Shown: positions 36,182 through 56,050, numbered from the stretch's first letter. The stretch: DNA of 64,000 bases from Candidatus Nomurabacteria bacterium (GCA_026396065.1 JAPLXO010000006.1:1525-65524); one strand, 5' to 3'. Made by a program: numbers and translations. Notes: generated by a model not told the origin, from the letters alone.

Positions 36182-37150
36182 TTATAAATGTTTAATAAAG
36201 TCTTTAATCCAGACTATTCTGGTAAGACTTTCTATGGTTCTGAATTTTACTATGTCGCCAAAACGACAAATTTCGTCTGTAAGTAGCTCTAAATCTGCAA
36301 TTTTTGCTACTGTTTTCAAATTTATACTCCCTCTTGCGTCAGCAATAACTCTGGAAGTTTTATTTAAAAAATCTATTTTTTCCAAATCATTACTATTATT
36401 ACTTCCATTTAAGGAAATAAGCCCTTCCATAACAAGTTTTTTTAAGTCAGGAATACTTTTTAAGTAATTCACACCTCTTAAATAAGAAGTGCAAATATCT
36501 AAAAGATATTTCTTGAAATTTTCATCGGAAATTTTTTTCTTTTTCTTTTTCCGATAAATAAAAATACAGATAGAAGGAATACTTGGGAATTTTTTCATGT
36601 GATTTTGTTGCCCAAACTCACTAGATTTTATTTGAAGTGGAACATTAATCCCAGCCACAAGGGAAACAAAGAGATCTACTCCTTTTATTGAATCTTGAAT
36701 TTCTGTAACTTCAATAACTCCAGAAATTATTTTTGAAAAATTTTTATCAGTTTTAATGAAATTTAATATCATATTTTTGACTTCAATTTCTACTAAAAGA
36801 GCAGATTTTCTTTGCTCAATTTCTGTTTTCAAAAAAGTTTCTATTGATTTTGGTGTACAATTTTCATTTACCAAAATCATAATTTCAAAATTACGATATA
36901 AAGCAATTTCAAAACGAGCCTCTTTTGGTGTTCTAATGGCTACCTTAAATATCACATCAAGGAACTTTTCCTTCATATACTCCACTTGATAAGCTAGAGA
37001 TTTATCAGTTTTTACTCGTTTTTTAAAACTAAGAATAACTTTTTCGTATCTTAAAGCTTTTAATATTTTATTTGCCTGAGTTTTAGAACCCAGGTCAATT
37101 GCATTGCTTACCTTGTAAGTTTCTGCAGTTTTTTGTATAACTGGGTTCAT
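36182..37150 (-). CDS. hypothetical protein
   Basis: 322 aa; internal poly-Lys run; no recognisable motif. Confidence 0.35.
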   Translation of the reverse strand: MNPVIQKTAETYKVSNAIDLGSKTQANKILKALRYEKVILSFKKRVKTDKSLAYQVEYMKEKFLDVIFKVAIRTPKEARFEIALYRNFEIMILVNENCTPKSIETFLKTEIEQRKSALLVEIEVKNMILNFIKTDKNFSKIISGVIEVTEIQDSIKGVDLFVSLVAGINVPLQIKSSEFGQQNHMKKFPSIPSICIFIYRKKKKKKISDENFKKYLLDICTSYLRGVNYLKSIPDLKKLVMEGLISLNGSNNSNDLEKIDFLNKTSRVIADARGSINLKTVAKIADLELLTDEICRFGDIVKFRTIESLTRIVWIKDFIKHL

Positions 37151-37306
37151 ATTTTCTTTTTTTTGAATTAATTTATATTAAATTTATTAGTTATCCTAAA
37201 GGTCAAAAAACCACTAGAAAAACCAATAAAGTCAATAAAATCAACCTTTTTCAAGAAACGGCCATTTGCCAAACAATAGCATATTTAATTTTAAAAGTCA
37301 AACAAA

Positions 37307-37933
37307 CTAAGTTCTATGGTCTTCTTTCTTCCATTCAATTAGCTTCCCTGCCTTACGCTCCATATTATCTGCCTTGCGAATAAATTTATTATTCTTTTTT
37401 GGAAAAATTAACTCATGTGGAGCGTCGTCTATCATTTGTGCTATATAATGTAAATTTTCTTTAGATGTAATCCATTTTGTTCCAAGTTTTTTGATATTAA
37501 AAGGTTTAGTAGAATAACTACGCAAACATTTTTTACCATTTGTATCATTAAAATATTCATGAAAATATGATAGTGCTAATTCACGAATATTTTTATAAAC
37601 TGGATCACGAAAGCGCAAAGTTGGATGATTTGTTTTACTTATAGCACCCCAGTAACCATTTCTTTTATAAATAGCTATTACATGATCAATATCACCTTCT
37701 GCTTTTAAATCTAATAACAATGGTTTTTCTCCATTTAACCAAAGTGCTACTCCTGCCAAAAGAGCACCTTCCAAGCAGTGTGCTTTTTTATTTAAAAGAA
37801 CTTCCCGTGGTGACATATATGTCTCTCCGTTTTTCTCCCAATTAATAGGTAAAGCATCTAAAAAATCTTGAATCTTTATTGGTGTTGAAAGTTTTTTAAA
37901 AATAGAAAGCTCTTTTTTTGAAAGTCCTAACAT
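37307..37933 (-). CDS. hypothetical protein (possible Cys-His-Asp hydrolase fold)
   Basis: Ordered AHCLEG...DHVIAIY...D suggests a transglutaminase-like triad; weak. Confidence 0.3.
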   Translation of the reverse strand: MLGLSKKELSIFKKLSTPIKIQDFLDALPINWEKNGETYMSPREVLLNKKAHCLEGALLAGVALWLNGEKPLLLDLKAEGDIDHVIAIYKRNGYWGAISKTNHPTLRFRDPVYKNIRELALSYFHEYFNDTNGKKCLRSYSTKPFNIKKLGTKWITSKENLHYIAQMIDDAPHELIFPKKNNKFIRKADNMERKAGKLIEWKKEDHRT

Positions 37934-39198: not shown

Positions 39199-39277
39199 AT
39201 ATTTATTGTACCATAAAATTTACTTTTATTAAAAATGGTATAATAAGATTGTTTAGTTTATAATTAATAAAAATATT

Positions 39278-39886
39278 ATGATACCATTTATTATCGCGCT
39301 TATTATAGGTTTAACAGGAAGCACGGCCTCTATAGCTGAAAAAGCTATACCGGGTGATTTTTTGTATGGGGTAAAAGTCCATATCAATGAACCAGTCGCT
39401 GGAATATTTTCTTTAACAAAAGAAGAGAAAACTGAATGGAAAGAACGTCTTGTAGAGCGCAGGCTCGATGAAGCTCAAAAATTAATTTCAAATAATAATT
39501 TTGATGAAAAAGTAAGAGTAGAACTTGAAAATAAAATAAATAATCAAATTGAAGATTTTAATAAAAGTGTAAGTGAATTAGCTTTACAAAAAAATAAATC
39601 TACAAATTCATCTAATTTGAATATAAGATTCCAAGCTTCTTTAGATGCTTACAATAACATATTTGGAAAATTAAATAATAAAGCAACAACAACAGAAGAA
39701 ACAAAAACAGAAACTACTAAATTGGTAAATAATATTATTATTGAAAATGTAAAGGTTCTTCCACCAGAAGAAACCAAAAAGGTAAATATACTCTCAAATG
39801 TTATAAAACGTGATGTAGAAGATGATATGGGTGAAAAACATTATGAAGATAACGATGAAAAAGATAACGAAGAATTTGACGATTAA
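39278..39886 (+). CDS. hypothetical secreted protein with acidic C-terminus
   Basis: Signal peptide, coiled-coil-like middle, DE-rich tail. Confidence 0.4.
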   Translation: MIPFIIALIIGLTGSTASIAEKAIPGDFLYGVKVHINEPVAGIFSLTKEEKTEWKERLVERRLDEAQKLISNNNFDEKVRVELENKINNQIEDFNKSVSELALQKNKSTNSSNLNIRFQASLDAYNNIFGKLNNKATTTEETKTETTKLVNNIIIENVKVLPPEETKKVNILSNVIKRDVEDDMGEKHYEDNDEKDNEEFDD

Positions 39887-39895
39887 ACATAACTT

Positions 39896-40393
39896 ATGAA
39901 AAAAATAATTTTATCTTCATTACTAATATTTAGTTTTGGCGCATATATATTACATGTGCGTATTTTAAGTTCTAACGCTCCTATCGCACTAACACAAAAA
40001 AATACTAAACCAAAAATAGATTTATCTATTCCTAAATACGATCAAATAGTAACAAATCCAATTGCACAAATTATAAAACCTACTCCTACTCCCCCACCAC
40101 CAGTAATAAATACTGGTAAATATAAAAATGGCACCTACACTGGTGATTCTGTGGACGCATCATATGGAAATGTACAAGTAAAAGTCGTCATATCTGGTGG
40201 AAAAATAGCTGATGTTCAATTTTTAGATCACCCACGAGGTGGAAATTCTACTAGAATAAATAATTATGCTATGCCCTACTTAATCAGCGAAGCTATTGCC
40301 TTACAAGACTCAAACGTCGACACTGTTTCTGGTGCATCATATACGAGTGAGGCATATCGCCAATCTTTGACTTCGGCACTAGCACAAGCTTAA
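39896..40393 (+). CDS. secreted FMN-binding domain protein (flavinylation target-like)
   Basis: Signal peptide, Pro-rich linker, FMN_bind-like core ending DTVSGASYTSEAY ([S/T]GA[S/T] flavinylation motif). Confidence 0.6.
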   Translation: MKKIILSSLLIFSFGAYILHVRILSSNAPIALTQKNTKPKIDLSIPKYDQIVTNPIAQIIKPTPTPPPPVINTGKYKNGTYTGDSVDASYGNVQVKVVISGGKIADVQFLDHPRGGNSTRINNYAMPYLISEAIALQDSNVDTVSGASYTSEAYRQSLTSALAQA

Positions 40394-40397
40394 AAAA

Positions 40398-41147
40398 ATG
40401 AGACAAGAACAAATTATAATGGGGACACCAGTTATTATTGAAATTAATGACAAAGAAGCAAGGCAAGAATTTTTTGATGAAGTTTTTGATTATTTTAAAT
40501 ATGTCGATGAAAAATTTAGCACTTATAAAGATACTAGTGAAATTACAGCAATAAATAAAAAAGAAATAGCAAAAGACACGATGAGCGATGACATGAAAAA
40601 AGTTTTTGAACTTTCAGAACAAACAAAAAAATTAACAGGTGGATATTTTGATATAGTGACGCCGGACGGATCTTATGATCCGTCCGGCCTAGTAAAAGGT
40701 TGGTCTATTTTTAATGCTAGTGAAATATTAAAAAACCACGGTGTGAAAAATTTTACAGTCGAAGCAGGTGGTGATATTCAGACTTCTGGAAAAAATGAAA
40801 ATGGTAATGTGTGGTGTATAGGCATTCAAAATCCTTTCAGTCAAAAGAAAGAAATTATAAAAAAAATATACGTCAGTGATGAAGGTATTGCTACTTCTGG
40901 AAATTATGTTCGAGGTAATCATATTTATAATCCAAAAGATAAAAATGATATAATAGAAGATATATCTAGCCTGACAGTAATTGGACCAAATATTTTTGAA
41001 GCAGATAGATTTGCTACATCGGCATATGCAATGGGAAAAGAAGGAATTTACTTTATAGAAAAGCTCGATGGTTTTGAAGCTTATATGATAGATAAAAATG
41101 GTATAGCGACAATGACGACAAATTTTAATAATTACACAAAACAATAA
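40398..41147 (+). CDS. apbE: FAD:protein FMN transferase (ApbE family)
   Basis: IMGTPV...FSTYKDTSEITAIN N-terminal signature and the GDIQ/ATSGNY region typical of ApbE. Confidence 0.7.
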   Translation: MRQEQIIMGTPVIIEINDKEARQEFFDEVFDYFKYVDEKFSTYKDTSEITAINKKEIAKDTMSDDMKKVFELSEQTKKLTGGYFDIVTPDGSYDPSGLVKGWSIFNASEILKNHGVKNFTVEAGGDIQTSGKNENGNVWCIGIQNPFSQKKEIIKKIYVSDEGIATSGNYVRGNHIYNPKDKNDIIEDISSLTVIGPNIFEADRFATSAYAMGKEGIYFIEKLDGFEAYMIDKNGIATMTTNFNNYTKQ

Positions 41148-41148
41148 T

Positions 41149-42675
41149 ATGAATTATATAGACAACTTTTTAAATAAAATAACAATGTATAGAATAGTTC
41201 TTTATGTACTAATTAGTTTTTTTGCTTTTTCTGTTGTTTTATCTATATTTAAATTTTTGCCATACACACCGATAGATCTTATTTCATCATTAATAATGAT
41301 TTTATTTATTTCATGGATATCAAATATTATTTTTGCTTATGTATATGATGCGCCAACAAACATTGAATCAGTTTATATTACTGCCTTAATTTTATTTTTT
41401 ATAATCACTCCCGCACAAGGAGGCGTATATTCAGAATTTTTACCATTCGCTTTTTGGGCTTCAGTATGGGCTATGGCTTCAAAATATATTTTTGCAATTG
41501 GCAGAAAACATCTTTTTAATCCAGCAGCTTTTGCTGTAATTTTAACAGCCTTTACAATAAATCAATTTGCCTCTTGGTGGATAGGTACACTATCAATGCT
41601 ACCGATAGTATTGATAGGTGGATTTTTAGTAATCAGAAAAATTCGTCGTGCTGATTTACTATTTAGTTTTATTATTTCAGCATTAATTACAGTGACAATA
41701 ATCACTGTATTAAAAGGCTCAAATATACAAACTGCATTATTTAAAACACTAGCAAATTCAGCTTTCTTTTTCTTTGCTTTTATTATGCTTACAGAGCCAC
41801 TCACCGCCCCTACTACTAGATGGTTACGCATAATCTTCGGAGTAATAGTAGGAGCTTTATTTACACCATCATTACATATTGGTGGAATTTATTCTTCTCC
41901 AGAGCTCGCATTGGTTGTAGGAAATATTTTTGCTTATTTAGTAAGTCCAAAAGAAAAATTATTCTTAAAATTGAAAGAACGTATCAATGTAGGCACAGAT
42001 ACTTATGATTTTATTTTTCTTAAAGATCGAAGTTTTTCTTTCCGTCCAGGGCAATATATGGAATGGACTCTAAAGCATCGTGATCCTGATTCTCGTGGTA
42101 ATAGAAGATATTTTACGTTGGCATCATCCCCTACAGAACCAGAAATACATTTAGGTGTAAAATTTTACCCAGAACCAAGTAGTTTTAAAAATCATTTATT
42201 AGTATTACCTATTGGTGGAGAAATTATTGCTGCACAAAAATCTGGTGATTTCGTATTACCGACAAATAAAGATAAAGAGCTTGTATTTATAGCTGGTGGT
42301 ATTGGTGTCACACCATTTCGAAGTATGATTCAATATTTACTCGATAAAAAACAAAAAAGGAATATCACTATACTGTATTCAAATAAAAAAGTTTCTGATA
42401 TTTCTTATAAAGAAGTTTTTGATAGAGCCAAAAAAGAACTAGGGATAAAGACAATTTATTCTATTACAGATAAAGGAGAAACAAATCTAGGTGAATCAAT
42501 GATAAGTGGAATTATTGATGCCCGCGTTATAGCAAAAGAAGTTCCTGACTATACAAATAAAGTATTTTATATATCAGGACCACATGGTATGGTAGATGCG
42601 TTTGAAAACACTCTCAAATCTATGGGTGTACCAAATAGTAATATTAAAATCGACTTCTTCCCTGGTTTTGCTTAA
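41149..42675 (+). CDS. fusion of NqrB/RnfD-like membrane domain and FNR-like FAD/NAD(P)-binding reductase domain
   Basis: ~7 TM N-terminus with HLFNPAAF and MLTEPLTAPTT (NqrB/RnfD-like TDP motif); C-terminus with RRYFTLAS (RxYS FAD site) and GGIGVTPF (NAD site). Confidence 0.6.
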   Translation: MNYIDNFLNKITMYRIVLYVLISFFAFSVVLSIFKFLPYTPIDLISSLIMILFISWISNIIFAYVYDAPTNIESVYITALILFFIITPAQGGVYSEFLPFAFWASVWAMASKYIFAIGRKHLFNPAAFAVILTAFTINQFASWWIGTLSMLPIVLIGGFLVIRKIRRADLLFSFIISALITVTIITVLKGSNIQTALFKTLANSAFFFFAFIMLTEPLTAPTTRWLRIIFGVIVGALFTPSLHIGGIYSSPELALVVGNIFAYLVSPKEKLFLKLKERINVGTDTYDFIFLKDRSFSFRPGQYMEWTLKHRDPDSRGNRRYFTLASSPTEPEIHLGVKFYPEPSSFKNHLLVLPIGGEIIAAQKSGDFVLPTNKDKELVFIAGGIGVTPFRSMIQYLLDKKQKRNITILYSNKKVSDISYKEVFDRAKKELGIKTIYSITDKGETNLGESMISGIIDARVIAKEVPDYTNKVFYISGPHGMVDAFENTLKSMGVPNSNIKIDFFPGFA

Positions 42676-42681: not shown

Positions 42682-43095
42682 CTATTCGAAATTAATTTTA
42701 AAACTATACATTCCCATTCCACAAACTCCTTTTAGTGGCTCGCCAGCTTTTGGTGTGCCGATGTCTATTTCTGTCTCCCCTGTTTGGGGTAACATTTTTT
42801 GATAATTAAGTGAATGAATTACGAGAGCTGAAGAACAACTAAAAGCTCCGTTTGTTTTCATAATTAATTTTGTAGGAATTCCAGCTTTGGCATTTGAAAC
42901 TGCAGGTGAATAACCATTTGTCGCATCGATTGTAATATATTGGATGCCATCTTTTACTGAAACATTTGAAACAAGTGATTGACCATATATTCCACCTTCT
43001 TCATTTTTAGATTTTGGACTTTTGGTAATGATAAAAATAATGCCGGCCAAAAGTGCGACTGTGACGACTATTGAAATAATTTTATTTGTATTCAT
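42682..43095 (-). CDS. secreted cupredoxin-like (copper-binding) protein
   Basis: N-terminal TM; Cys/His/Met-rich C-terminus (CSSALVIH ... GVCGMGMY) as in EfeO-type cupredoxin domains. Confidence 0.45.
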   Translation of the reverse strand: MNTNKIISIVVTVALLAGIIFIITKSPKSKNEEGGIYGQSLVSNVSVKDGIQYITIDATNGYSPAVSNAKAGIPTKLIMKTNGAFSCSSALVIHSLNYQKMLPQTGETEIDIGTPKAGEPLKGVCGMGMYSFKINFE

Positions 43096-43097
43096 AT

Positions 43098-44159
43098 TTA
43101 TATATTAAATAATGGATTAATAATACCAAGACCAGCCAGCCCTGCCAAGAGTGCAAAGATTCCAAGACCGAGAACAATCACACCTGCGGATTTGAAAAAG
43201 AGTGGCGCGTGTTTGGAATGTGCGAATGATACAGAACTGAAAGAAAGAAGTGCGAGCACAGGCAATGTGCCGAGGGCAAAGGCTAGCATAATTAAAAATC
43301 CAGAGGTAAAAGATCCGCTCGAGAGTGCCGAGACTTGCATTGATTGAGTGAAACCACAAGGCAAGAAAAATGTACCGATACCAATGAGAAGCGGGGCAAA
43401 AGTCGCATGTTCAGCTTTTCGAAAAAAAGAAAATATCCAACTTGGTAGTGTAAGTTTATTTTTTTTGATAATGCCGAGTAAATTTATTCCTAGTAAAATC
43501 ATCACGATAGATGCGATGAGTCCGAGGATTGCCGAGAAAATAAAATTGATGCCGATTGCTTTGCCGACGAGGCCGAGCACTCCGCCGAGTACAGCGAAGC
43601 CGAGCAATCGCCCTGCGTGGAAAAGGATAAAAGGTTTCTTTGTAGATTTTGGATTGCCTTGATCATCCTGCGCGACTTTGGCAGATAAAGAAAGGACCAA
43701 TCCGCCGACAATTGCGAGACAGCTCGAAAGCGAAGCGATAATTCCGATAATAAAACTCGTCGCTGGTGTCGTCTTTCCACCAATACCGAGATTCAAAAGT
43801 CCTGATTTTTGTAATAGAAAAAATAAAACCAAAAATACTAAGCCTATCGGTATAGCTTTCCAAATAACTTCATTATCTTCTTTTGAAGGTTTTCTTGTGG
43901 TGAGCTTGTCGAATCCATCTAGAGATAAAGTGTATTTATTTCCTTTAACTTTTTCATTTAAAATATTTACCAATTCCTCAACTGGTTTTTCACTATCAGT
44001 TTCAATCTCAACTATTTCTTTTTTCAAATCTACTTTCACACTTTTAACTAAAATTTGCTCGGCTTGTGGTGAGCTTGCCGAATCCATCAAAATATCTTCA
44101 ATCAATATCTTGCACGATGCGCAATGCGTCCCCGAAACATGTAATGTGTATTTTTTCAT
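43098..44159 (-). CDS. HMA-domain protein fused to CcdA/DsbD-like polytopic membrane domain
   Basis: N-terminal GTHCASC heavy-metal-associated motif; 6-8 TM C-terminal domain with a Cys pair. Confidence 0.55.
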   Translation of the reverse strand: MKKYTLHVSGTHCASCKILIEDILMDSASSPQAEQILVKSVKVDLKKEIVEIETDSEKPVEELVNILNEKVKGNKYTLSLDGFDKLTTRKPSKEDNEVIWKAIPIGLVFLVLFFLLQKSGLLNLGIGGKTTPATSFIIGIIASLSSCLAIVGGLVLSLSAKVAQDDQGNPKSTKKPFILFHAGRLLGFAVLGGVLGLVGKAIGINFIFSAILGLIASIVMILLGINLLGIIKKNKLTLPSWIFSFFRKAEHATFAPLLIGIGTFFLPCGFTQSMQVSALSSGSFTSGFLIMLAFALGTLPVLALLSFSSVSFAHSKHAPLFFKSAGVIVLGLGIFALLAGLAGLGIINPLFNI

Positions 44160-44166
44160 AAAATTT

Positions 44167-45030
44167 TTAATTAGTTTTTAATTTCAATAACTTTTTTTCT
44201 AAATCTTCTAAATAATAATAAGGTGCTGACTTTAATTTTATTGCCTGTCTAGTTTCTTCAAGAACTAGTTTATTGTTTTTCTTTCCAATTTTTAATAAAA
44301 ATGCAAAAAAAGTACAATTCTCATGTTTTCCTGTTTCTTTTACATTTAACATTTGAATTAAAATTGGTACTAAAATTTCCTTTGGAAACTCTAAAACTTT
44401 TGAAACAAAAACTTCGTCACTAAAAATAGTATCTCCTACATTTTTAATTTTTTCTACACTTTTTTTTAATTCAATAGCTTCTTTTTTAGAAAGTTTATCT
44501 AAATAATTTTTTATATTTATGCTTTTTTGATCAACAAATTCCTTTTCTAAAAGTACAACAACCCATTCTTTAGATAAGTTAACCAAACTATGAAAATTAC
44601 CCCAACCACTTTCTTTAACAACATAAAACCAGTTTTTCCAAGATTTTAATTGACTTTTACAGTATTTTTTAGAAAATCTAGCATAAAGAGAAGTTTTTTC
44701 TGTTGGGATGTTACGAGTTATTGCAAAGTCTAATCTTACTTCTCTGGTAATTGGTTTAAAACCTTTTTTCAACGGATTAATTTTGCCTAAAATTTTTACT
44801 CTTGCTTTTCTAGTTTCAGGATGAGGATTCAATAAATCAATTTCGTCACCAGCAAAACCATAAGGAGGAAATACAATAATTCTTTTTGTAAATTTTGTAT
44901 CTTCAACTTTTAAACGAATAAAAAAACATGCTGGTCTTACAACAATTTCAAAACTTTCTGTGCCAAGAAACTTTTTTACAGTTTCTTTAAATAAATAAGA
45001 CCCAGCAATTTGTTTAAAATTAAATTCCAT
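44167..45030 (-). CDS. hypothetical protein within copper locus
   Basis: 287 aa, no TM, no recognisable motif. Confidence 0.35.
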   Translation of the reverse strand: MEFNFKQIAGSYLFKETVKKFLGTESFEIVVRPACFFIRLKVEDTKFTKRIIVFPPYGFAGDEIDLLNPHPETRKARVKILGKINPLKKGFKPITREVRLDFAITRNIPTEKTSLYARFSKKYCKSQLKSWKNWFYVVKESGWGNFHSLVNLSKEWVVVLLEKEFVDQKSINIKNYLDKLSKKEAIELKKSVEKIKNVGDTIFSDEVFVSKVLEFPKEILVPILIQMLNVKETGKHENCTFFAFLLKIGKKNNKLVLEETRQAIKLKSAPYYYLEDLEKKLLKLKTN

Positions 45031-45033
45031 AAA

Positions 45034-47331
45034 TTATAATTTCTTAACCTTAATTCTAAGTGAATTCGACACGACACTGACACTACTAAAAGCCATTGCG
45101 AGGCCGGCGAAGACGGGGTTTAGGAGCCAGCCGAAGATCGGATAGAAAAGGCCGGCAGCGAGCGGAATGCCTACTATATTATATATGAAAGCCCAGAAAA
45201 GATTTTGTTTAATTCCGCGCATGGTGATTTTCGAAAGTTTGATCGCTTTGACGAGCTTGGAAATATCTCCGTGTAGAAGCGTAATCCCTGCCGACTCGAT
45301 AGCCACATCGGTGCCCGTGCCCATAGCGATGCCGACATCGGCTTGGGCGAGAGCGGGTGCGTCGTTCACACCGTCTCCAGCCATAGCGACGACGCGCCCG
45401 TTATTTTGCAATTCTTTTATCTTCGCGAGTTTGTCCGCAGGCATCACATGCGCCACGACTTCATCGATGCCGACGAGTGATGCCATATATTTTCCAGCTT
45501 TCTCATCATCCCCAGTGAGCATAATTACTTTGATGCCGAGTTTATGCAAATCAGTGATCGCTTGTTTCGATTCAGTTTTTATTTCATCAGCGACTGTGAG
45601 GAAACCAATTACTTCCATTTTTGTAGCGAGAATCACTGGAGTCTTTCCTTGCATTGTATATTGTTCGATTTTTGTCGCGTTAAAATTAATTCCCAAATCT
45701 TTTATCATTTTCACATTGCCGACAAAATATTCTATGCCGTTCACTGTACCCCTAATTCCCTTGCCTTCTATATTTTCAAAATTACTTATTTCTTCTATTT
45801 TTATTTTATTTTCTACTGCGTAGTTCACAATTGCATTTGCAATAGGATGCTCTGACTTTTTTTCTAATGATGCGATGATTGAAATGAATTCAATCTCTGG
45901 CTCCTCAAGGACGGTCCTTAAAGAAGTCCCAAAGGACCGTCCTTTACCCGCCAGTTCGATGTCCACCAATGTCGGCTTACCGATAGTTATCGTGCCTGTT
46001 TTGTCGACAATCACGGTATCAACTTTGTGAAGTTTCTCGAGTGTCGCTGCATCTTTAATTAAAATTCCTTCTTTTGCACCTTTACCGACGCCGACAATTA
46101 TTGCTGTCGGTGTAGCGAGCCCGAGCGCACAAGGGCAAGCGATCACCAGCACGCCAACAAAACACATGAGCCCGTATGAAAGTGCTTGTGAAAAGCCGAG
46201 CGGGCCTGAAGCAAAAAAAAGCCAAGCTCCGAGTGTGATGAATGCAATCACCAAAACAATTGGTACAAAGATTGCCGAAATTTTATCAGCGAGGGCTTGA
46301 ATCGGTGCTTTACTACTTTGTGCTTCTTCAACCATTTTAATAATTTGCGCTAGTAATGTTTCCCCTCCGACTTTTGTCGCTTTGAAATTAAAAGTGCCTG
46401 TGGTATTTATCGTCCCTGCCACGACATTATCCCCAATATTTTTCTTCGCTGGCATCGGCTCACCCGTCACCATTGATTCGTCGACAAAAGAATTCCCTTC
46501 TACAATAGTTCCGTCCACTGGAATTTTTGCTCCAGGTTTAATAATAATTATATCGCCATGCACAACTTCGTTTACAGAAATTTCAATTTCTTTTCCATCA
46601 CGAATAACGAGCGCGGTTTTTGCTTGTAAATTTAAAAGTTTTTCTATTGCATCCCCTGTTTTTAATTTCGAACGAGTTTCTAAATATTTACCAAGGGCAA
46701 TAAAAGTGATGACAATAATTGTGACGTCAAAATATGTCACGCCAACATTTGGAAAATCTTTTAATAAAGTTTCTTCAAAAGCACCTACCATGAAACTGTA
46801 AAAATAAGCGACAGAGGTTCCAAGTCCTATCAATGTATCCATATTCGCTTTACCTGTTTTTAGGAAACGATAAAAACCTTGTAGATAAGGTTTACCTACC
46901 ACAAAGAGCATATACGTCGCCATCAAAGGCAAAAGATGATGGAAAAATTCTTCCCAAACTAAAGGCATACTATACTGTGTTTTGAATTGCGCCAAAATAT
47001 CCCAAGTCATGACAAAAACACTAATTACGGCGAGTGGAATTGCTGAAATAATTTTTATCTTCATATCTCTAAGTTCTGCCAACTTTTCACTTTTACCTGT
47101 AGCAAGAACCGTTCTTGCTACAGGAATAATTAGAGAGTAGCCAAGTGACTCGAGTTTTGTATTTAAACTTTCTGGATTTGTTTTACTTTCATCATAAGAG
47201 ATTTTTGCACTTTCTGTTCCAGTGTTTACAGAGATTTCTTGCACGCCATCAATTTTCTTCACAGTTCTCTCGATAATACTAGCGCAAGATGCACAGTGCA
47301 TGCCTTTTACTTTATAAGTTTTATTTTGCAT
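45034..47331 (-). CDS. copA: copper-translocating P-type ATPase
   Basis: N-terminal HMA GMHCASC; TM CPC motif (ACPCALGLATP); DKTGTIT phosphorylation site; GDGVNDAPAL. Confidence 0.9.
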   Translation of the reverse strand: MQNKTYKVKGMHCASCASIIERTVKKIDGVQEISVNTGTESAKISYDESKTNPESLNTKLESLGYSLIIPVARTVLATGKSEKLAELRDMKIKIISAIPLAVISVFVMTWDILAQFKTQYSMPLVWEEFFHHLLPLMATYMLFVVGKPYLQGFYRFLKTGKANMDTLIGLGTSVAYFYSFMVGAFEETLLKDFPNVGVTYFDVTIIVITFIALGKYLETRSKLKTGDAIEKLLNLQAKTALVIRDGKEIEISVNEVVHGDIIIIKPGAKIPVDGTIVEGNSFVDESMVTGEPMPAKKNIGDNVVAGTINTTGTFNFKATKVGGETLLAQIIKMVEEAQSSKAPIQALADKISAIFVPIVLVIAFITLGAWLFFASGPLGFSQALSYGLMCFVGVLVIACPCALGLATPTAIIVGVGKGAKEGILIKDAATLEKLHKVDTVIVDKTGTITIGKPTLVDIELAGKGRSFGTSLRTVLEEPEIEFISIIASLEKKSEHPIANAIVNYAVENKIKIEEISNFENIEGKGIRGTVNGIEYFVGNVKMIKDLGINFNATKIEQYTMQGKTPVILATKMEVIGFLTVADEIKTESKQAITDLHKLGIKVIMLTGDDEKAGKYMASLVGIDEVVAHVMPADKLAKIKELQNNGRVVAMAGDGVNDAPALAQADVGIAMGTGTDVAIESAGITLLHGDISKLVKAIKLSKITMRGIKQNLFWAFIYNIVGIPLAAGLFYPIFGWLLNPVFAGLAMAFSSVSVVSNSLRIKVKKL

Positions 47332-48919: not shown

Positions 48920-48991
48920 TCGGGAGTAGCTCAGCGGTAGAGCGGTCGCCTGTTAAGCGATTGGTCGTAGGTTCGATCCCTACCTCCCGAG
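48920..48991 (+). tRNA. tRNA-Asn (anticodon GTT)
   Basis: Acceptor TCGGGAG/CTCCCGA, D-arm GCTC/GAGC, anticodon loop CTGTTAA, T-loop GTTCGATC. Confidence 0.85.
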
Positions 48992-50662
48992 CATCGTAGA
49001 AAAAACAGAGTTAAACAGCTCTGTTTTTTCTTTTGAGCTTTTGTACACAACACAGTTTTTAGGTTCGAACTTCATGTTTTCTTCTTTTGCATGTTTGATA
49101 CCTTCAACGAGTTTGTTTACTGCAATACTGTTATGAATACTAAGTATTTCTTCATTCCAAACTAGGTTCGAACCAAGTTCTGATAACATTAATCTTTTTG
49201 TTTTTATTCCTCCAATTTCAAGATTTTCTTTAAGACAAGTAGTTAGATCAACAATTTTATTCATTTTAGAATACCAATCAACAGTTATCTTTTTCTCTGT
49301 GAGAGAATATCTTTTATTTAAAGATTCTAGGTCAGTTTTGTATTCTTCATTTGTAATTTGTTCGTCTCTAAGCATTGCACGAAGTCTTGTTTTTTTAGAT
49401 TCATATTCTAAATTGTCTATGGCTTCTTTTTCTTTTTTAAATACAACTTCATTTATTTCTTTATTTTTTAACTCAGTTATATATTGTCTTGACCAATCTG
49501 CTAATTCTTTAGAAAAGTTTAGATTACTGTCAACAAAACTGATTAATTCTTTAGATATAGTTACATCTGAAATAGAATTATATTTTTCTTTGTTTTTCTT
49601 TTTCTTAACATTATAGTAATAAGTAAAACTAAGATATTTAGGATTTTCTAACTCGGTAATTTTCCTTGCACATTTAGGGCAATGTGTTTTGTCTCTGTAG
49701 GCAAATTTAAATTTACAATCACATATGAGTTGAAACTTCACATCTTGTCCCATAGAGTCTTCTTTATCTGACTTTAAAAAACCTGAAAAAACTGTTTCAT
49801 GATGTTGAATCTTAGGAATGTTTTTACCAGAAAGAATTATTTTTATTTTGTTGTGTTGGTCCTCGGTAATAAGTCTAGGAAGTTTATTATCAAGCTCGTA
49901 TCTTTGTCCTCCTTGGAAGAAAAAACCAGCATATATAGGGTCTTTCAAGATTTCGTATATACGAGAAGGAGTAATTAAAGCCCCGCCAATTCTCTTTCTT
50001 TTTACAGTAGTTAATCTCATTTCTCTAACAGCGTACCTGTATAATTTTCCAGCTGAGTAGGTTCCTGTTAAAAACATATCGAAGAGTTTCTTTAGTGATT
50101 TTATTTTTACCTCATCTACCAACCAATCTCTGTTTCCTTTTTCTTCTGTTTTGTCATTTAAAAATCCTAAAGAAGCACAGCCGTGAGGAATACCCATACG
50201 TGCCTTTTTTTCTTGACCCCTTTTAACATTTATGGAAAGTTCTTTAATAAATTGTTTACCTTGACTGAATTCTATTGAAAGGACCATAACATTATCCCAA
50301 GGATAAAAAACTTTATCATGAGTAATAATTGCTTTTATAAAACCAGAACTCAAAAGATCAATTATCTTACCTCCCTCAGTCATATTTCTAGCTAATCTAT
50401 CAGCTTTCCAACAAACAATTGAATCTATTTCTCCTTTTTTTATCATTGACATCATTCGAGAGAACTCAGGTCTTATGCTTGCTGTTTTAGCTGATTTTGA
50501 TTCTTTAAATACCTCAACAAAAGGAGAAAGTTTATAATACTCTGATATTCTTTTAGCTTCATCAGTTTGAGAGTCAATAGAAAGCATTTGCTTATCTTCA
50601 GACTCTGAAGATTTACGGTTATAATTTCCTGGCTTTAATTGTGTAAAATCTATTGTATTCAT
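48980..50662 (-). CDS. large serine recombinase (phage-type serine integrase)
   Basis: N-terminal resolvase catalytic domain (LSIDSQ serine region, WKADRLARN); recombinase domain; zinc ribbon CDCKF...CPKCARK; C-terminal coiled coil; 560 aa; stop codon lies within the tRNA-Asn 3' end. Confidence 0.85.
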   Translation of the reverse strand: MNTIDFTQLKPGNYNRKSSESEDKQMLSIDSQTDEAKRISEYYKLSPFVEVFKESKSAKTASIRPEFSRMMSMIKKGEIDSIVCWKADRLARNMTEGGKIIDLLSSGFIKAIITHDKVFYPWDNVMVLSIEFSQGKQFIKELSINVKRGQEKKARMGIPHGCASLGFLNDKTEEKGNRDWLVDEVKIKSLKKLFDMFLTGTYSAGKLYRYAVREMRLTTVKRKRIGGALITPSRIYEILKDPIYAGFFFQGGQRYELDNKLPRLITEDQHNKIKIILSGKNIPKIQHHETVFSGFLKSDKEDSMGQDVKFQLICDCKFKFAYRDKTHCPKCARKITELENPKYLSFTYYYNVKKKKNKEKYNSISDVTISKELISFVDSNLNFSKELADWSRQYITELKNKEINEVVFKKEKEAIDNLEYESKKTRLRAMLRDEQITNEEYKTDLESLNKRYSLTEKKITVDWYSKMNKIVDLTTCLKENLEIGGIKTKRLMLSELGSNLVWNEEILSIHNSIAVNKLVEGIKHAKEENMKFEPKNCVVYKSSKEKTELFNSVFSTMLGR

Positions 50663-50853
50663 ATTGTTCTTCTATTTTATCATATTTTAATTTTTAAGTT
50701 TTCAGCCAAAGTATTAAGCAATAAAGATCCAATTTCGTTAATTTCTTGGTCGGAAAGAGAACTTCCAAAAACCTCTCCATATGATTTTTGGAGTGCAATT
50801 CTTAGATCTATTATTGCTTGTTTACTTAGCTGGAGAGGCATAAAGAATTTTAA

Positions 50854-53379
50854 TTAACTAGTAATTTCTTCATCCTCTTCGTCATCATCGATAGCGGCAC
50901 TTGTTCCTTCAATAACGCTTTTTAATAGGGACAGAGACTCCTTAGGGGGTACAGGGGCATTTAAAATGTTTGCAAATTCTTCAACCAAGAAATATAAGTA
51001 TGGGGCTTTTCCTGACTTATATGTCTCTAAATCTTTATAACAATCAAGTATTCCAAGTGCTTCTAATTCTTTTAGTGTTCTACGAATAGTTTTTGAAGAT
51101 TTTTTTATCTCTTTAGCAAGATCTGATGCTGAAAGACCACATTTAACTGTAAGTACTTTTAAAACTTCTGCTCGATCAACAGGCATAGTTGATAAAATAA
51201 CAGGTTTGATTGTTTTTATTTCTTCTTCAGTTATATTTTGTTGTCCATTTATAAAACACAATATTCGAAGTAAGGATTTTAATTGATTTAAAATTCTCCA
51301 AGGATGCTCTACTTGCCAGTCTTTTATTTCATAGAATTCAATTTTTTGACCCTTTTCATTTTCAAAAGTTGATTTACTGGTAATAGCAATACCACGAGCC
51401 TTACAAATAAACTGCGCAACGGAATTAATTTTATTTTGAATTTCTTTTGTTTCTGGTAGATTTTTATGTTCTTCAATCTTTTTAACTAATTGTGTTGCAT
51501 ATGAAGAAATAAGATGTCGAGTTTTTAAAACCTTTTCTTTTCGATTTGGCTCATTCCACGACTTATCAAATCCTACTGCCATTTCTTTTTCAGTTAAATC
51601 TGAAAGGCGTAAAAATAAGAATCGAGGACCAAGTTGTGTAGCGTAATTATAGTGTTTAATTAAAATAGAAGGAGTAATACATCCAATCATAGAAAAAAGA
51701 GAATGATATTCAACAAGACCTCTCGTTGCTGTGAATTTTTGGAACTTCCCGTCAAAAATACTAGTAAGATCTCCTAGAATCTTTTTTACCATTTCTTCAT
51801 TCATTGAAAACAAAGTGTTTAAGTCTTTTATGATAAAAGACTTATTATCAAGTAAAGGAAGTAAGTCTTGTGTTTCTGAACCGTCTGGAGGTACATATCC
51901 AGAACAAAAAGCATTTTCTGTAAGAGTATCTAATGTATAAACATCATCCATATCACTATAGAGTCCAACCAATTCAGTTTTAAAAGAAGATGGCACTCCT
52001 ATAAGAAATAACCAAAGTGGAGAACTAAGGCGCAACTGAGCTGATATTATTACTGCAGTTACTATTTTTAATGTTTCTTTATTTACTATCCCTATTTCCA
52101 ATACAGCATCATATGCCTCCTGGAAGTCTATGTCCCTATTAAGAATTAATGGTATTTTCTCTTCTTCTTTTTTTGCCTTTAATTGTGCTTGAAAAGATTT
52201 TATTCTTAAACTATTTACATAAGGAATATATTTTTTGGCATCTTCTTTTGTAATACCAAAATACTCTTTAATGTTGTGTCCAATAAAGATTTCTGCTGTT
52301 ATTTTATTAATCTCAATGAGTTTATTAAAAACAGGGCTAAGTACCTCCATTAATTTTAACTTTGGTGTATCTGACGGTATTTGTTTTAATATTTCCTCTA
52401 TTTGTTCTATTGAGACTGATTCTTCTTCTTTTTTAGAGATATCTTCCGGGTACATTTTTATAACAGCTTTTGCTGCGGCTTTAAAGTCCCCACTATGATT
52501 TAAAAAAGTAAATGTAGTAAATTTAGAATAACCTTTATTGGCTTGAAAAGGATGAGCGGATGTAGAAAATACATAAAACATAGAAATATCTCCATGATCT
52601 GTTGTAGCTGATATTCCTTGACCTTTTTCTTTGCCAGGTCTACGCCAATAGTTTTTACCTTCTTCTATCCATCCGTGTGGTTCTAATATCTCGTTCCAAG
52701 TAGCTTTCTTGTTAAATTTATCACCAGGACGATTCCCTGAAAGTGGCTCTCCTTGTTTCCACTCATATTCAGTTGCAGGTTCATCTTCAACTTCATTAAA
52801 GACTCTTAATAGATCAATTAATTCTTCGTGTATCTCGTCTGGTATTATAGGTAAATCTAAAAGACTTCCTTGTATAGTTGTATAACCACTTGAAGGTGGA
52901 ATAAGAGCATACCCACCATTGGCTTTTGTTTCTGCTGTTGTTACAATAATTCCTTTATTTTCTTTTTCATTAAATTCCACTCGTCGAGCAAGTTTTACTG
53001 TTGGCTGTGTTGTTTCTGTTCTATAACGTAAGTGAGTTCCTTTGTTTCTAGTAGTATTCTTGTGACACAAATCAACAAACTTTTTTTGTTCGTCTGAAAG
53101 CTTGTTATACCAGAGATCATACAATCCTGTATAATGCTTTTCGTCAAAATCCAAAGTGACTAGATTGTCGGAAACTTTACCTCCAGCAATAGCCCAAGAA
53201 GTAACACCTGCTTCAACCCATTTTTTAGCTTCTTCTTCTGTAGCTTTTGTGTATAAAAATTCATGTTCGTGATCTTTACTAAGACACACTGAATGTGGTC
53301 TCTTATCTCCTTCAGTAATTGGTATCACTGAAAGATTTGAATTAACTAATTTTATAATATATTCGTTTTGATTTTCCAT
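50854..53379 (-). CDS. replication protein: N-terminal bifunctional primase-polymerase (Prim-Pol) domain, helicase/DUF-like C-terminal region, wHTH near C-terminus
   Basis: NLVTLDFDEKHY and TRNKGTHLRYR (Prim-Pol core); RPGDKFNKKATWNEILEPHGW...WRRPGKEKGQGISATTDH (phage/plasmid primase region); 841 aa. Confidence 0.7.
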   Translation of the reverse strand: MENQNEYIIKLVNSNLSVIPITEGDKRPHSVCLSKDHEHEFLYTKATEEEAKKWVEAGVTSWAIAGGKVSDNLVTLDFDEKHYTGLYDLWYNKLSDEQKKFVDLCHKNTTRNKGTHLRYRTETTQPTVKLARRVEFNEKENKGIIVTTAETKANGGYALIPPSSGYTTIQGSLLDLPIIPDEIHEELIDLLRVFNEVEDEPATEYEWKQGEPLSGNRPGDKFNKKATWNEILEPHGWIEEGKNYWRRPGKEKGQGISATTDHGDISMFYVFSTSAHPFQANKGYSKFTTFTFLNHSGDFKAAAKAVIKMYPEDISKKEEESVSIEQIEEILKQIPSDTPKLKLMEVLSPVFNKLIEINKITAEIFIGHNIKEYFGITKEDAKKYIPYVNSLRIKSFQAQLKAKKEEEKIPLILNRDIDFQEAYDAVLEIGIVNKETLKIVTAVIISAQLRLSSPLWLFLIGVPSSFKTELVGLYSDMDDVYTLDTLTENAFCSGYVPPDGSETQDLLPLLDNKSFIIKDLNTLFSMNEEMVKKILGDLTSIFDGKFQKFTATRGLVEYHSLFSMIGCITPSILIKHYNYATQLGPRFLFLRLSDLTEKEMAVGFDKSWNEPNRKEKVLKTRHLISSYATQLVKKIEEHKNLPETKEIQNKINSVAQFICKARGIAITSKSTFENEKGQKIEFYEIKDWQVEHPWRILNQLKSLLRILCFINGQQNITEEEIKTIKPVILSTMPVDRAEVLKVLTVKCGLSASDLAKEIKKSSKTIRRTLKELEALGILDCYKDLETYKSGKAPYLYFLVEEFANILNAPVPPKESLSLLKSVIEGTSAAIDDDEEDEEITS

Positions 53380-53380
53380 A

Positions 53381-53450
53381 CCTGTTTGCTGTCTCTCATG
53401 ACGACCTCGGATAGCAAACAGGTGAGTTTTTATCCGAAGTCATCATGAAA
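53381..53450 (+). promoter_or_regulatory. overlapping inverted repeats with plus-strand terminator-like hairpin abutting the replication-gene start
   Basis: CCTGTTTGCT(53381-90)/AGCAAACAGG(53414-23) then TGAGTTTTT; alternative stems CGGATA/TATCCG and TCATGACGAC/GTCATCATGA. Confidence 0.4.
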
Positions 53451-53601
53451 AACAAATTAAATTTTTAAGCTTCTTCTGTGAAAGAATTACTTTTAATTTT
53501 AAACTTTAGGAAAATCATAAAAATATTACACTTTGTGACAAATAAAAAAATACCCCTATTTTGCAGAGTATTTTTAAGTAAACAAAATCAATATTCCCAG
53601 T

Positions 53602-54411
53602 TTATTTCTTTTTTGTGAATTGAATCATAAACCTAGGATTTAAATGATAGCCACGTTTGGGTTCATTTTTTATAAAATCATCAATGCTTGTTTTTCCTTT
53701 CACTATTAACTTTTTAATTTCGTTATTTATTGAGCTAATTCTGTTTTTTATATTTCCCATAGATGTAGCAAACTCTTTTGCTAGTATTTCTTTTTTGAAA
53801 CAATAATCCTTATCTTTCATATATTTGTAATATAAAAAGTGTATGATCTGTTTATCGGTGTTGTTAATTTTTTGTGATTTTTTTTTCTTATAGACAAGGT
53901 AATTGCCTTGTATTTTAATATCTAACGTTCTTAAATCTATTTCCTCTGTCATTTCAACCTCTTTAGTTCTATCGGAATCATTCCCTAGTAAATACTCTTC
54001 CATTGATTTACGTAAAATATCGTATTTTTCTTCTGTGTTTTCAAGTAGAGTATTTAGCTTATTTTTAAACTTCTTCCAAAGTTCTAAATTGTTCACTCGG
54101 ACATCTGGATGTAAAACTAAAAAATGATGTTTTGGGTTTACACGGAAAAAACATTCCACTATAAAAGTGTCTAGTTTATCGATCTCTTTATAAAATTTTA
54201 AGTGACCTGACATAAGATTTTTATCGTTGAAAGATAATCCGAATTTCCTTACATATTTTAAATATTCTCTTAAATAAATTAAATCATCTCCCTTTATCAT
54301 GTTTTGGTCTAGTGACGGAAATATACTTTCAGCTAATGTGTCTGGAAATAAAGCAAGAAATTTATTTATTTTTTCTTCATCTTTTTTCATACTATAAATT
54401 AAGTATATCAA
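53602..54411 (-). CDS. putative transcriptional regulator with C-terminal OmpR/PhoB-type winged helix
   Basis: C-terminal 80 aa (KQIIHFLYYKYM...ILAKEF...NIKNRISSINNEIKKL...KRGYHLN) fits the trans_reg_C pattern. Confidence 0.4.
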   Translation of the reverse strand: MIYLIYSMKKDEEKINKFLALFPDTLAESIFPSLDQNMIKGDDLIYLREYLKYVRKFGLSFNDKNLMSGHLKFYKEIDKLDTFIVECFFRVNPKHHFLVLHPDVRVNNLELWKKFKNKLNTLLENTEEKYDILRKSMEEYLLGNDSDRTKEVEMTEEIDLRTLDIKIQGNYLVYKKKKSQKINNTDKQIIHFLYYKYMKDKDYCFKKEILAKEFATSMGNIKNRISSINNEIKKLIVKGKTSIDDFIKNEPKRGYHLNPRFMIQFTKKK

Positions 54412-54522
54412 AAAAGAAGACTTTTAATCAATTTTCACAGTTTTAAAGGTAAGAGAATATTAAAAAATATCGATGTCCTTCCTTCACCCTCCCATCTAAA
54501 TGCTACTTTTCTAATATTTATA

Positions 54523-55257
54523 CTAAATATACTTACTTCGTTGTCTATTCCAATTAGAGATGATCTCTCTTTTACTGTTCCTATTCTCATGCTTTCTACG
54601 AATAGTATTAGCCTTATACTTCAGCCTTTCGATCCTAATAGCTCTTTTGGTAAGCATTCCCTTGTATAACGGCCTTTTGGTGCTCAAAATAGCATTTCTT
54701 AGCTTATTATTCAAATCCATTTCCTTTCCTAATTGGTCCACTTTGTTGTTCCTATTGAAATTAGATACCTTATATCTCAAATGCAAACATGATTTACATT
54801 TAAACTCTGTTCCATTAGAAGGAAGGAATAACTTCGCCGCCCTATAACCGCATTCACATCTAAAGAGTGTTCTTTCGCCATAGCGTAAATATACAGTAGT
54901 CAGCACTATTCTTTGTGGTTCATTATTCACTACACTTACAGTTAAAAACGTGTCAGCCTCGTATTCAGGCCAAAAGTAGACTACTGATCCCTTGTTAGTC
55001 GTAAACATATCATTTATATATTCCTTTTTACGTATTTGAGCAAAGACCCCCTTAAGCTTTTTAGAGTCTAGTATTACACAATCTTCAACGAATATTTTGT
55101 TACTTGTTGTCGGCATTATATGTGTATTATCCCATAAGTCTTTAGATTGGACCAAAATATTGAATTTTTTTAGAAAAAATTTTAGAGGGTCAACGATTTT
55201 TAAAAGGAGAATAATTCCAAATATTGGTTTTTCTTCCCAGCTAGCGATAGGTATCAT
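54523..55257 (-). CDS. hypothetical protein with Cys4 zinc-ribbon-like motif
   Basis: CECGYRAAKLF...CKSCLHLRY; basic C-terminus. Confidence 0.35.
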   Translation of the reverse strand: MIPIASWEEKPIFGIILLLKIVDPLKFFLKKFNILVQSKDLWDNTHIMPTTSNKIFVEDCVILDSKKLKGVFAQIRKKEYINDMFTTNKGSVVYFWPEYEADTFLTVSVVNNEPQRIVLTTVYLRYGERTLFRCECGYRAAKLFLPSNGTEFKCKSCLHLRYKVSNFNRNNKVDQLGKEMDLNNKLRNAILSTKRPLYKGMLTKRAIRIERLKYKANTIRRKHENRNSKREIISNWNRQRSKYI

Positions 55258-55553
55258 ACCCTAGATGGTACCTTGACTGACCTGTATTAAAAGGAACAAC
55301 CCCCCAATACCCCATATACCCACTTGTCACTTACTTCATTATCATACCAACCCAACACTAGTCATTAGTTTATTGTTATTAATATAGCCGTCATGTATAT
55401 ATAAATATTACAGTCATACTATCTAACATTATTACTACTTACTTTACTTAATTACAAAGAAAACTATTTTTTAGGATTGAAATTATACATCAATCCTTTT
55501 TAGCTTATCTAGTCCATAAGCTTTTTATTATTAACCATTATTAATTAAATCAA

Positions 55554-55871: not shown

Positions 55872-56050
55872 AAACTCAAATGACAATTTCTTCTCAATAC
55901 AGAGAAAGAAAATCAAGAGACTTAGATATAGTTCCAAAGCTTGTTATAGCTAACCACTTTTTGAAAAATATCAGTGGTCTTTCGGTCTCAGATAGAATTA
56001 CAGTCGAGTATCTAAAGGAGGGTCAGATCATTATTACTAAATTAACATAA
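55868..56050 (+). CDS. small hypothetical protein (possible AbrB/MazE-like swapped-hairpin)
   Basis: 60 aa; PKLVIANHFLKNISGLSVSDRITVEYLKEGQIIITK resembles a SpoVT/AbrB-type domain; weak. Confidence 0.3.
   Translation: MKTQMTISSQYRERKSRDLDIVPKLVIANHFLKNISGLSVSDRITVEYLKEGQIIITKLT

Follow-up and report, generated by a model that had tools for sequence, protein, structure and literature searches.

A compact NQR/RNF-like flavinylation-associated module in a Candidatus Nomurabacteria genome as a candidate route for outward electron transfer from NAD(P)H

The closest described relatives of the locus presented here were defined by Méheust et al. 2021 (eLife, PMC8238504), who applied the name 'NQR/RNF-like system' to fusions of the Pfam domains PF03116 (NQR2_RnfD_RnfE) and PF00175 (NAD_binding_1) encoded in flavinylation-associated clusters with ApbE and FMN_bind genes, and who reported them mainly from Actinobacteria and the candidate phyla radiation (CPR). 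An AlphaFold-Multimer model of the complex from Ktedonobacter racemifer was published later (Huang et al. 2024, mSystems, PMC11334425). The membrane subunit of that model lacks the flavinylated Thr of NqrB/RnfD, and the carrier protein is docked on the extracytosolic face in such a way that its flavinylated residue comes close to a pocket for non-covalent flavin in the membrane subunit, a pocket that the covalent flavin of the carrier was suggested to sample. Here, we analysed a locus of this kind at positions 39278-42675 of a 64,000-nucleotide (nt) stretch from a Candidatus Nomurabacteria bacterium (GCA_026396065.1 JAPLXO010000006.1:1525-65524), hereafter the window. Three of its genes, for a flavin mononucleotide (FMN) carrier, ApbE and a 508-amino-acid (aa) fusion, form the module discussed below.

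The locus is a new member of this published, computationally defined class, whose existence, architecture and proposed function are already in the literature. We consider it probable that the locus is a self-contained Nqr/Rnf-like flavinylation-associated module that passes electrons from NAD(P)H outward by way of flavins. CPR/Patescibacteria are generally regarded as symbionts that live by fermentation and have hardly any redox machinery in their membranes. The three-gene module is one of few candidates for transmembrane electron movement in the CPR and is widespread, and the value of the window locus is that of a well-preserved, compact example of the class.

Architecture and class membership of the locus

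Four closely packed open reading frames (ORFs) on the + strand, separated by gaps of 9, 4 and 1 nt, make up the locus. The carrier, ApbE and fusion ORFs named in a first-pass annotation were all present, and the DUF5667 ORF inside the same interval (39278-39886) had gone undescribed. The features are as follows, where FAD denotes flavin adenine dinucleotide and FNR ferredoxin-NADP+ reductase.

39236..39244 (+): candidate promoter, a perfect extended -10 element (TGGTATAAT) read from the sequence, 34 nt 5' of the first gene
39278..39886 (+): DUF5667 membrane protein, 202 aa (Pfam DUF5667, E = 8.5e-9), first gene of the apparent operon
39896..40393 (+): FMN carrier (NqrC/RnfG-like subunit), 165 aa (Pfam FMN_bind, E = 2.6e-9)
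40328..40339 (+): flavinylation motif S-G-A-S, aa 145-148 of the carrier, in DTVSGASYTS, likewise read off the sequence
40398..41147 (+): ApbE-type FAD:protein FMN transferase, 249 aa (Pfam ApbE, E = 1.4e-40)
41149..42675 (+): 508-aa fusion, whole gene, with NQR2_RnfD_RnfE (aa 145-265) and NAD_binding_1 (aa 380-485)
41149..41964 (+): membrane domain of the fusion, aa 1-272 (Pfam PF03116, E = 3.6e-10; AlphaFold2 model; Foldseek)
41356..41799 (+): putative riboflavin-pocket motifs of the membrane domain, TNIES…T78 (41356-41382), KHLFNPAA (41506-41529; H121, A126) and TEP (41791-41799; E216)
41950..42675 (+): FNR-type FAD/NAD(P)H domain of the fusion, aa ~268-508 (NAD_binding_1, E = 1.2e-13; NCBIfam reductase models)

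The short gaps, together with the extended -10 element ahead of the first gene, suggest that the four genes form a single operon, and the element itself is offered only as a suggestion for the promoter of the cluster. Consensus scans for promoters and terminators were uninformative in this region, with promoter matches not above those in shuffled sequence in such AT-rich DNA.

The locus fits the operational definition of the class. PF03116 (N-terminal) and PF00175 (C-terminal) occur in one protein, ApbE and FMN_bind genes lie within five genes of it (here they directly precede it, spaced by 4 and 1 nt), and the flavinylated Thr of NqrB/RnfD is absent from the membrane domain. The architecture, comprising the fusion, an NqrC/RnfG-like FMN_bind protein with a predicted N-terminal anchor, a clustered apbE and no flavinylation Thr in the membrane subunit, is identical to that of the class. 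The modelled example of the class is from Ktedonobacter, a genus of the Ktedonobacterales, and the trio was also found at another locus of these (L082). Nothing essential differs between the window locus and the class; what the locus has in addition is a DUF5667 gene, which is clade-specific, and copper genes next to it.

When species-representative genomes were scanned, relatives were encoded in at least 568 stretches, and 364 clusters at 50% identity had E <= 1e-30. Gene linkage was counted in the 80 best of these at least 568 stretches, which were mostly Patescibacteria-type, from many candidate phyla, and included six from Chloroflexota. FMN_bind was present in 73/80 loci and ApbE in 72/80, usually in the order FMN_bind-ApbE-fusion on the same strand, and the loci lacking either gene were mostly on short contigs. 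The strong profile matches and the conserved synteny are not due to chance. The first-pass annotation had called such a module unexpected in a reduced, CPR-like genome. This did not hold, as both the published survey and the at least 568 stretches, whose best 80 are mostly Patescibacteria-type, mark the class as characteristic of the CPR.

One divergent relative stood apart in its surroundings. The protein is P0271 (locus L083, 5001-6539, JGI 3300048892). No ApbE or FMN_bind gene lies within 5 kb of its gene, which directly follows those for a Nif11-type precursor and a LanM-like lanthipeptide synthetase (DUF4135 + LANC_like).

Fold, motifs and flavin sites of the fusion and its carrier

The N-terminal half of the fusion matched PF03116 with 40.2 bits against a cut-off of 27.7 (E = 3.6e-10, aa 145-265). 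The AlphaFold2 model of the full-length protein (pLDDT 83.3, pTM 0.77) matched only FNR-type domains when searched with Foldseek against the PDB, namely those of flavohaemoglobin reductase, NqrF, cytochrome b5 reductase and the dehydrogenase domain of SpNOX, with a TMt of up to 0.84 (4eh1) over ~245 columns. Since this search matched the FNR half alone, the membrane domain (aa 1-272) was modelled separately, giving ten helices (pLDDT 82.5, pTM 0.82). All 12 Foldseek matches to this model at E <= 0.001, and the top 15 overall, were RnfD or NqrB, with TMq of 0.64-0.71 for RnfD (9eri_D, 8rbq_D, 8ahx_D, 7zc6_D) and ~0.6 for NqrB; the next matches, urea/ammonium transporters, had E > 0.4. As modelled, the membrane domain has the RnfD/NqrB fold, so that the assignment made in the first-pass annotation was borne out by profile and by fold. 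Among 26 family members, predicted inner loops contained on average 14.7 Lys/Arg residues and predicted outer loops 1.6, from which an N-in/C-in topology is predicted, with the FNR domain in the cytoplasm and the loop between transmembrane helices 5 and 6 (TM5-TM6) outside.

That loop carries the covalent FMN in RnfD/NqrB. A flavinylation Ser/Thr had been expected in the membrane domain of the window protein, and a search for [STG][GS]A[ST] throughout the 508-aa fusion found none. With E. coli RsxD as the alignment bridge, RnfD of Clostridium (C. tetanomorphum) reads '…PVQMTSW-LDGVTTATPL…' followed by ~35 residues before TM6, whereas the window fusion reads '…NQFASWW-IGTL' (ASWW = 141-144) and enters TM6 ('SMLPIVLIGGFLVIRK') within ~4 residues. 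The missing flavinylated segment amounts to ~40 aa relative to Clostridium/Acetobacterium RnfD and ~75-80 aa relative to E. coli RsxD; an idea that ~115 RnfD residues were missing proved wrong. Aligned in this way, the membrane domain is without the flavinylated TM5-TM6 loop of RnfD/NqrB, and the FMN_bind protein is by all appearances the only ApbE substrate of the module.

A second, non-covalent flavin site may have been kept. The riboflavin ligands of NqrB are Thr162, Gly198, Asn200, Ala205, Phe342 and Asp346, and the substitution D346A cripples the enzyme (Hau et al. 2023, PMC10643135). NqrB 159-222 aligned with RsxD 78-141, RsxD FNPA (121-124) aligned with window FNPA (123-126) (Smith-Waterman with shuffles, z = 6.0), and S74…T78…P88 of the window corresponded to RsxD S77…T81…P91 (z = 1.7). 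The TEP motif that the first-pass annotation had read in place of TDP was confirmed, with T215-E216-P217 aligning with T-D-P of RsxD and with T345-D346-P347 of NqrB. The putative equivalents of four ligands are listed below.

NqrB Thr162: window T78, T or S in the 26 family members
NqrB Asn200: window H121, invariant in the 26 family members
NqrB Ala205: window A126, within the conserved FNPA motif
NqrB Asp346: window E216, invariant in the 26 family members

N124-P125 was likewise invariant in this set. In the alignment register favoured here (see below), the mapping of the NqrB riboflavin ligands onto conserved family residues supports the view that the inner half of the membrane domain has kept a pocket for a non-covalent flavin.

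The C-terminal half of the fusion was recognised by PF00175 with 52.1 bits against a cut-off of 22 (E = 1.2e-13, aa 380-485), and NCBIfam models of flavohaemoprotein, NqrF, PaaE-type and Fre-like reductases reached aa 280-504; Pfam FAD_binding_6 was not reported at E <= 0.01 for the 508-aa protein. The motif R-x-Y-[S/T] of the FNR superfamily, whose fold joins an FAD-binding barrel to a Rossmann-like NAD(P)-binding subdomain, appears as a conservative Tyr-to-Phe variant, R-Y-F-T (aa 320-323, 42106-42117), in the run RRYFT (aa 319-323), and is accompanied by GGIGVTP (aa 383-389, 42295-42315), SGP (aa 476-478, 42574-42582) and a C-terminal FPGFA. These motifs were invariant in the 26 family members. 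Profiles, motifs and fold thus agree on an FNR-like FAD/NAD domain fused to the membrane domain, as first proposed.

The 165-aa carrier, first described as a secreted protein with an SGAS motif, matched PF04205 (FMN_bind) with 38 bits, and the motif was confirmed at aa 145-148. The protein begins with MKK and ~17 hydrophobic residues, continues with a Pro-rich linker and ends with the FMN_bind domain, whose closest solved structure was a covalently flavinylated FMN-binding domain (8p2a, E = 2.3e-17). Ser148, in the DTVSGAS motif near the C-terminus, is the predicted phosphoester attachment site for FMN. Conservation of the motif in orthologues had been set beforehand as a check, and [S/T]GA[S/T] was kept in 73/73 FMN_bind orthologues (SGAT in 52, SGAS in 19, TGAS in 2), ~17-20 residues before the C-terminus. 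All 73 also shared the MKK and hydrophobic N-terminal anchor. The Lys/Arg bias of the anchor was 2.2 in the N-terminal flank versus 1.0 in the C-terminal flank. Hydropathy and this charge bias predict a classical N-in signal anchor, as in NqrC/RnfG.

The module therefore shares with Na+-NQR/RNF the RnfD/NqrB fold (TM-scores 0.6-0.7), the FNPA, T(D/E)P and N/E…T…P motifs, an NqrF-like FNR domain, a carrier with an FMN_bind domain of the NqrC/RnfG type and its flavinylation motif, and apparent equivalents of the NqrB riboflavin ligands. In contrast, it has two subunits rather than six, no ferredoxin domain on the FNR part, no Fe-S clusters and no RnfA/E or NqrD/E, the TM5-TM6 loop (~40-75 aa) is deleted, and Asn200 and Asp346 of NqrB are replaced by His and Glu. 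NOX/FRE-type and MsrQ-like/PepSY-like reductases (S. pneumoniae NOX, 8qt6/8qta) follow the same logic of a polytopic domain with a C-terminal FNR-type dehydrogenase that moves electrons outward; however, their membrane domain, a 6-TM di-haem ferric reductase, is unrelated to the RnfD/NqrB fold, and the carriers proposed here are flavins, not haems.

A proposed electron path and the location of ApbE

In the path that we propose, ApbE would load FMN from FAD onto the carrier, and the FNR-type domain of the fusion, with its FAD, would oxidise NAD(P)H in the cytoplasm. Electrons would then enter the RnfD/NqrB-fold domain, probably via a non-covalent flavin in the equivalent of the NqrB riboflavin site (T78, H121, E216), and pass to the FMN on Ser148 of the membrane-anchored carrier at the outer face. 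There, the carrier FMN is proposed to take the place of the covalent FMN on the outer face of RnfD/NqrB, and would in a final step hand the electrons to an extracytosolic acceptor. The analysis itself shows the domain identities, the fold, the conserved motifs, the linkage of the genes, a predicted topology and the lack of other RNF/NQR subunits nearby; the cofactors of the membrane domain, the electron direction, the docking of the carrier and the acceptor are what we infer in this scheme. The path would be one-way and outward, whereas that of NQR/RNF is semicircular, and the NqrB flavin pair would run opposite to its direction in NQR. As proposed, the module requires no haem, Fe-S clusters or quinone. 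A path free of all three would suit CPR metabolism. In a CPR cell that ferments and is poor in respiration, its most likely role would be the disposal of reducing equivalents (NAD(P)+ regeneration) or the reduction of external Fe(III), flavins/quinones or O2.

The module appears self-contained because no RnfA, B, C or E homologue and no respiratory or Ndh2-type match was found nearby. Searches with phmmer, using E. coli RsxA, B, C and E against the window ORFs and the ±10 kb surroundings of the 80 loci, gave 0 homologues, and none of the ~49 window ORFs had a respiratory/Ndh2-type or Pyr_redox-type Pfam match at E <= 1e-5, a survey that included no query aimed at Ndh2/EetA/EetB. The first-pass annotation had likened the module to the flavin-based extracellular electron transfer (EET) of Listeria (Ndh2, EetA/EetB, PplA, FmnA/FmnB). 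The two share an ApbE-family enzyme (FmnB, 7esa), an FMN_bind carrier, predicted here to be covalently flavinylated and outside the membrane, and NAD(P)H as the ultimate donor. They do not appear to be homologous systems. ApbE here is no lipoprotein, the path is a single fused polypeptide with no quinone step proposed, and no FAD-exporting energy-coupling factor transporter was seen nearby.

The ApbE of the window is well preserved. Its domain scored 139.9 bits, its closest solved structure was Listeria FmnB (7esa, E = 1.7e-19), and it aligned with 7esa and with the V. cholerae (6nxi) and E. coli ApbE, with one His opposite the catalytic His of the V. cholerae enzyme. Residues S47/E48/N53, G97/K100/G101, D126, A165-T166-S167-G168, H175 and D203/T207 were invariant in 70 ApbE orthologues, as were MG[T/M], including M8, and the DPSGxxKG and GGD motifs. 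The catalytic residues, which had been singled out as a point to check, are therefore present here and invariant among orthologues. Two close relatives have a split or truncated ApbE gene (L003, with ApbE at -751 and -184 as counted from the fusion; L004, with an ApbE ORF of 160 aa), for which gene decay, a frameshift or an error of assembly could be responsible.

No signal peptide, lipobox or transmembrane segment was found in the window ApbE. The protein starts MRQEQIIMGT, 7 residues ahead of the conserved MGT, with M8-G-T opposite residue 26 of mature FmnB (7esa), and upstream extension of the ORF is impossible because the FMN_bind stop codon lies 4 nt upstream. A leaderless start ('MKxTRIIMG[M/T]P…', ~248 aa) was seen in 68/72 orthologues examined; in the remaining 4/72 the first possible start lies upstream and is ambiguous, with an in-frame Met at the same conserved position. 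The start was leaderless in 5/6 Chloroflexota loci, the sixth being among the ambiguous ones, and in two further divergent members, the Ktedonobacterales locus L082 and a locus from a different lineage, L084. Those extracytosolic ApbEs that have been characterised are lipoproteins, and the known leaderless ApbE, that of K. pneumoniae, modifies a cytoplasmic enzyme (PMC12052999). The localisation puzzle arises because ApbE is leaderless, yet, judging by the carrier anchor and the topology of the fusion, both its target and the docking face of the membrane domain are predicted to be outside. With leaderless ApbE a class-wide trait, the picture of a secreted carrier flavinylated outside the cell is consequently not straightforward. 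It is possible that the carrier is flavinylated in the cytoplasm with cytoplasmic FAD before or during export, which would spare the need for a FAD exporter; equally, the carrier may actually be cytoplasmic, or ApbE may be exported by a route that was not recognised. We found no mention of the class-wide absence of an ApbE export signal in the text of PMC8238504, PMC11334425 or an ApbE review. The leaderless ApbE thus poses a concrete puzzle of where and when the carrier is flavinylated, and one that bears on the 'extracytosolic' model of the class.

Several further observations weigh against the outward flavin path. We found no experimental characterisation of any class member in the searchable literature, and the fused form goes unmentioned in a 2025 RNF/NQR review. 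Clustering of neighbours within ~7-8 kb of the fusion brought up no acceptor or partner gene that recurs; the recurrent neighbours were genes for MacB/HlyD-type ATP-binding cassette exporters, extracytoplasmic function (ECF) sigma factors, histidine kinases and response regulators, none of them a redox enzyme, and the terminal acceptor is therefore not readable from gene context. The leaderless ApbE does not sit well with a carrier on the outside. Sequence alone leaves the alignment register between the N-terminal half and RnfD/RsxD ambiguous, with two Smith-Waterman candidates (z = 6.0 and z = 4.7), and hhalign of this half with RsxD was not significant and picked another register. We favour the collinear register, which is inferred from equal numbers of helices, from structures that superpose over nearly their full length and from the matching motifs. 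The first-pass claim of a minimal conduit from NAD(P)H to an extracellular flavoprotein consequently stood in part: domain, motif and fold tests agree and match the published proposal, but flavinylation outside the cell is complicated by the leaderless ApbE.

That same trait, along with the K. pneumoniae precedent and the modest Lys/Arg bias of the carrier anchor (2.2 versus 1.0), would fit an arrangement in which all flavin chemistry is cytoplasmic, with the FMN_bind protein inside. Instead of conducting electrons outward, the membrane domain would then serve as a membrane anchor, work as an ion channel or pump that NAD(P)H oxidation drives, or lead electrons to an acceptor soluble in the membrane. 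We regard this arrangement as unlikely, given that the conserved MKK and hydrophobic stretch have the form of a classical N-in signal anchor as in NqrC/RnfG, and that the TM5-TM6 loop, the FMN-bearing counterpart in RnfD/NqrB, is predicted outside. CPR bacteria are generally regarded as lacking quinones, which also counts against it. The published multimer model likewise puts the carrier on the extracytosolic face (PMC11334425). With decidedly little probability, the module could be an assimilatory or detoxifying metal reductase, for Fe(III) or Cu(II), tied here to the cupredoxin/HMA-DsbD_2/CopA locus. The copper genes begin 7 nt past the fusion stop codon, Cupredoxin and HMA-DsbD_2 occur within 10 kb in 5/80 loci, two of which (L041, L068) belong to distant lineages, CopA occurs in 10/80, and VIT1 iron transporters were reported in 6/127 NQR/RNF-like clusters (Méheust et al., PMC8238504). 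However, the association is rare, position and orientation vary, the copper genes here lie on the opposite, convergent strand, and no metal transporter is among the conserved neighbours. Reduction of Cu(II) outside the cell would also raise its toxicity.

The RnfD/NqrB fold of the membrane domain enters into two other readings. One takes the locus for a remnant or partial RNF/NQR complex working with RnfA/E/B/C or NqrA/D/E encoded elsewhere in the genome, in line with the NCBI annotation of a 100%-identical protein from a Candidatus Nomurabacteria (Patescibacteria/CPR) metagenome-assembled genome as 'RnfABCDGE type electron transport complex subunit D'. This is extremely improbable in view of the 0 homologues of RnfA, B, C and E in the 64-kb window and around the 80 loci, the absent flavinylated loop, the fused NAD(P)H-oxidising domain of its own and the retention of the three-gene set as a unit. 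The other sees the two-subunit, flavin-only complex as more than an electron outlet. It would be a minimal translocator of ions (Na+/H+) that is driven by redox reactions and derives from the RnfD/NqrB channel subunit, and its carrier would be flavinylated by cytoplasmic ApbE before export. Besides the fold, an invariant Phe208 at the position of the NqrB gate residue F338 and the acidic residue of T-E-P point toward this idea, to which we assign a very low probability; if true, a respiration-less CPR bacterium could build a membrane potential from NAD(P)H.

Neighbouring genes and the rest of the window

Directly downstream of the fusion, on the - strand, lies a copper-type locus (42682-47331) encoding a Cupredoxin_1 protein, an HMA + DsbD_2 membrane protein, a 287-aa ORF without a Pfam match and a CopA-type P-type ATPase. 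The cupredoxin/HMA-DsbD_2 pair together with CopA was also found at L001, L003 and L041, while L007 and L068 have the pair with no CopA detected. A copper link as a conserved feature of the module was rejected on the counts given above and the variable positions and orientations; the adjacency to a copper-resistance locus, remarked on in the first-pass annotation, is accurate for this genome but is not that of a conserved neighbour (5/80).

DUF5667 was likewise rejected as a general fourth subunit, as only 9/80 loci, every one a close relative, have it ahead of the trio, and the protein is clade-specific and probably not part of the core module. The 202-aa ORF of the window starts inside its own transmembrane helix, whereas relatives have 310-392 aa (for example, L004 7510-8688) and carry a further cytoplasmic segment at the N-terminus. 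Genes for ECF sigma factors were seen repeatedly, in 15 related loci, and the DUF5667 protein is suggested to be anti-sigma-like and shortened in this genome.

Three ORFs flanking the module, of 322, 208 and 287 aa (36182-37933 (-) and 44167-45030 (-)), had no Pfam match, and the 36-40 kb region had the second-lowest GC content in the window (0.276-0.28). Further along, a tRNA-Asn gene (48920-48992 (+)) overlaps with the gene for a large serine recombinase (48980-50662 (-)). Beyond the recombinase lie a gene for a Prim-Pol protein (50854-53379 (-)) and six ORFs without Pfam matches, then genes for an N6_N4 DNA methylase (60089-62035 (+)) and a SIR2_2-domain protein (62040-63191 (+)), with a GC content of 0.27 at the window end. 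The stretch 48920-63191 looks like a tRNA-integrated mobile or defence island. Elsewhere in the window, 21201-22562 (-) encodes a 453-aa protein that combines a CHB_HEX_C_1 (chitobiase/hexosaminidase C-terminal-like) domain with a C-terminal T4SS_pilin domain.

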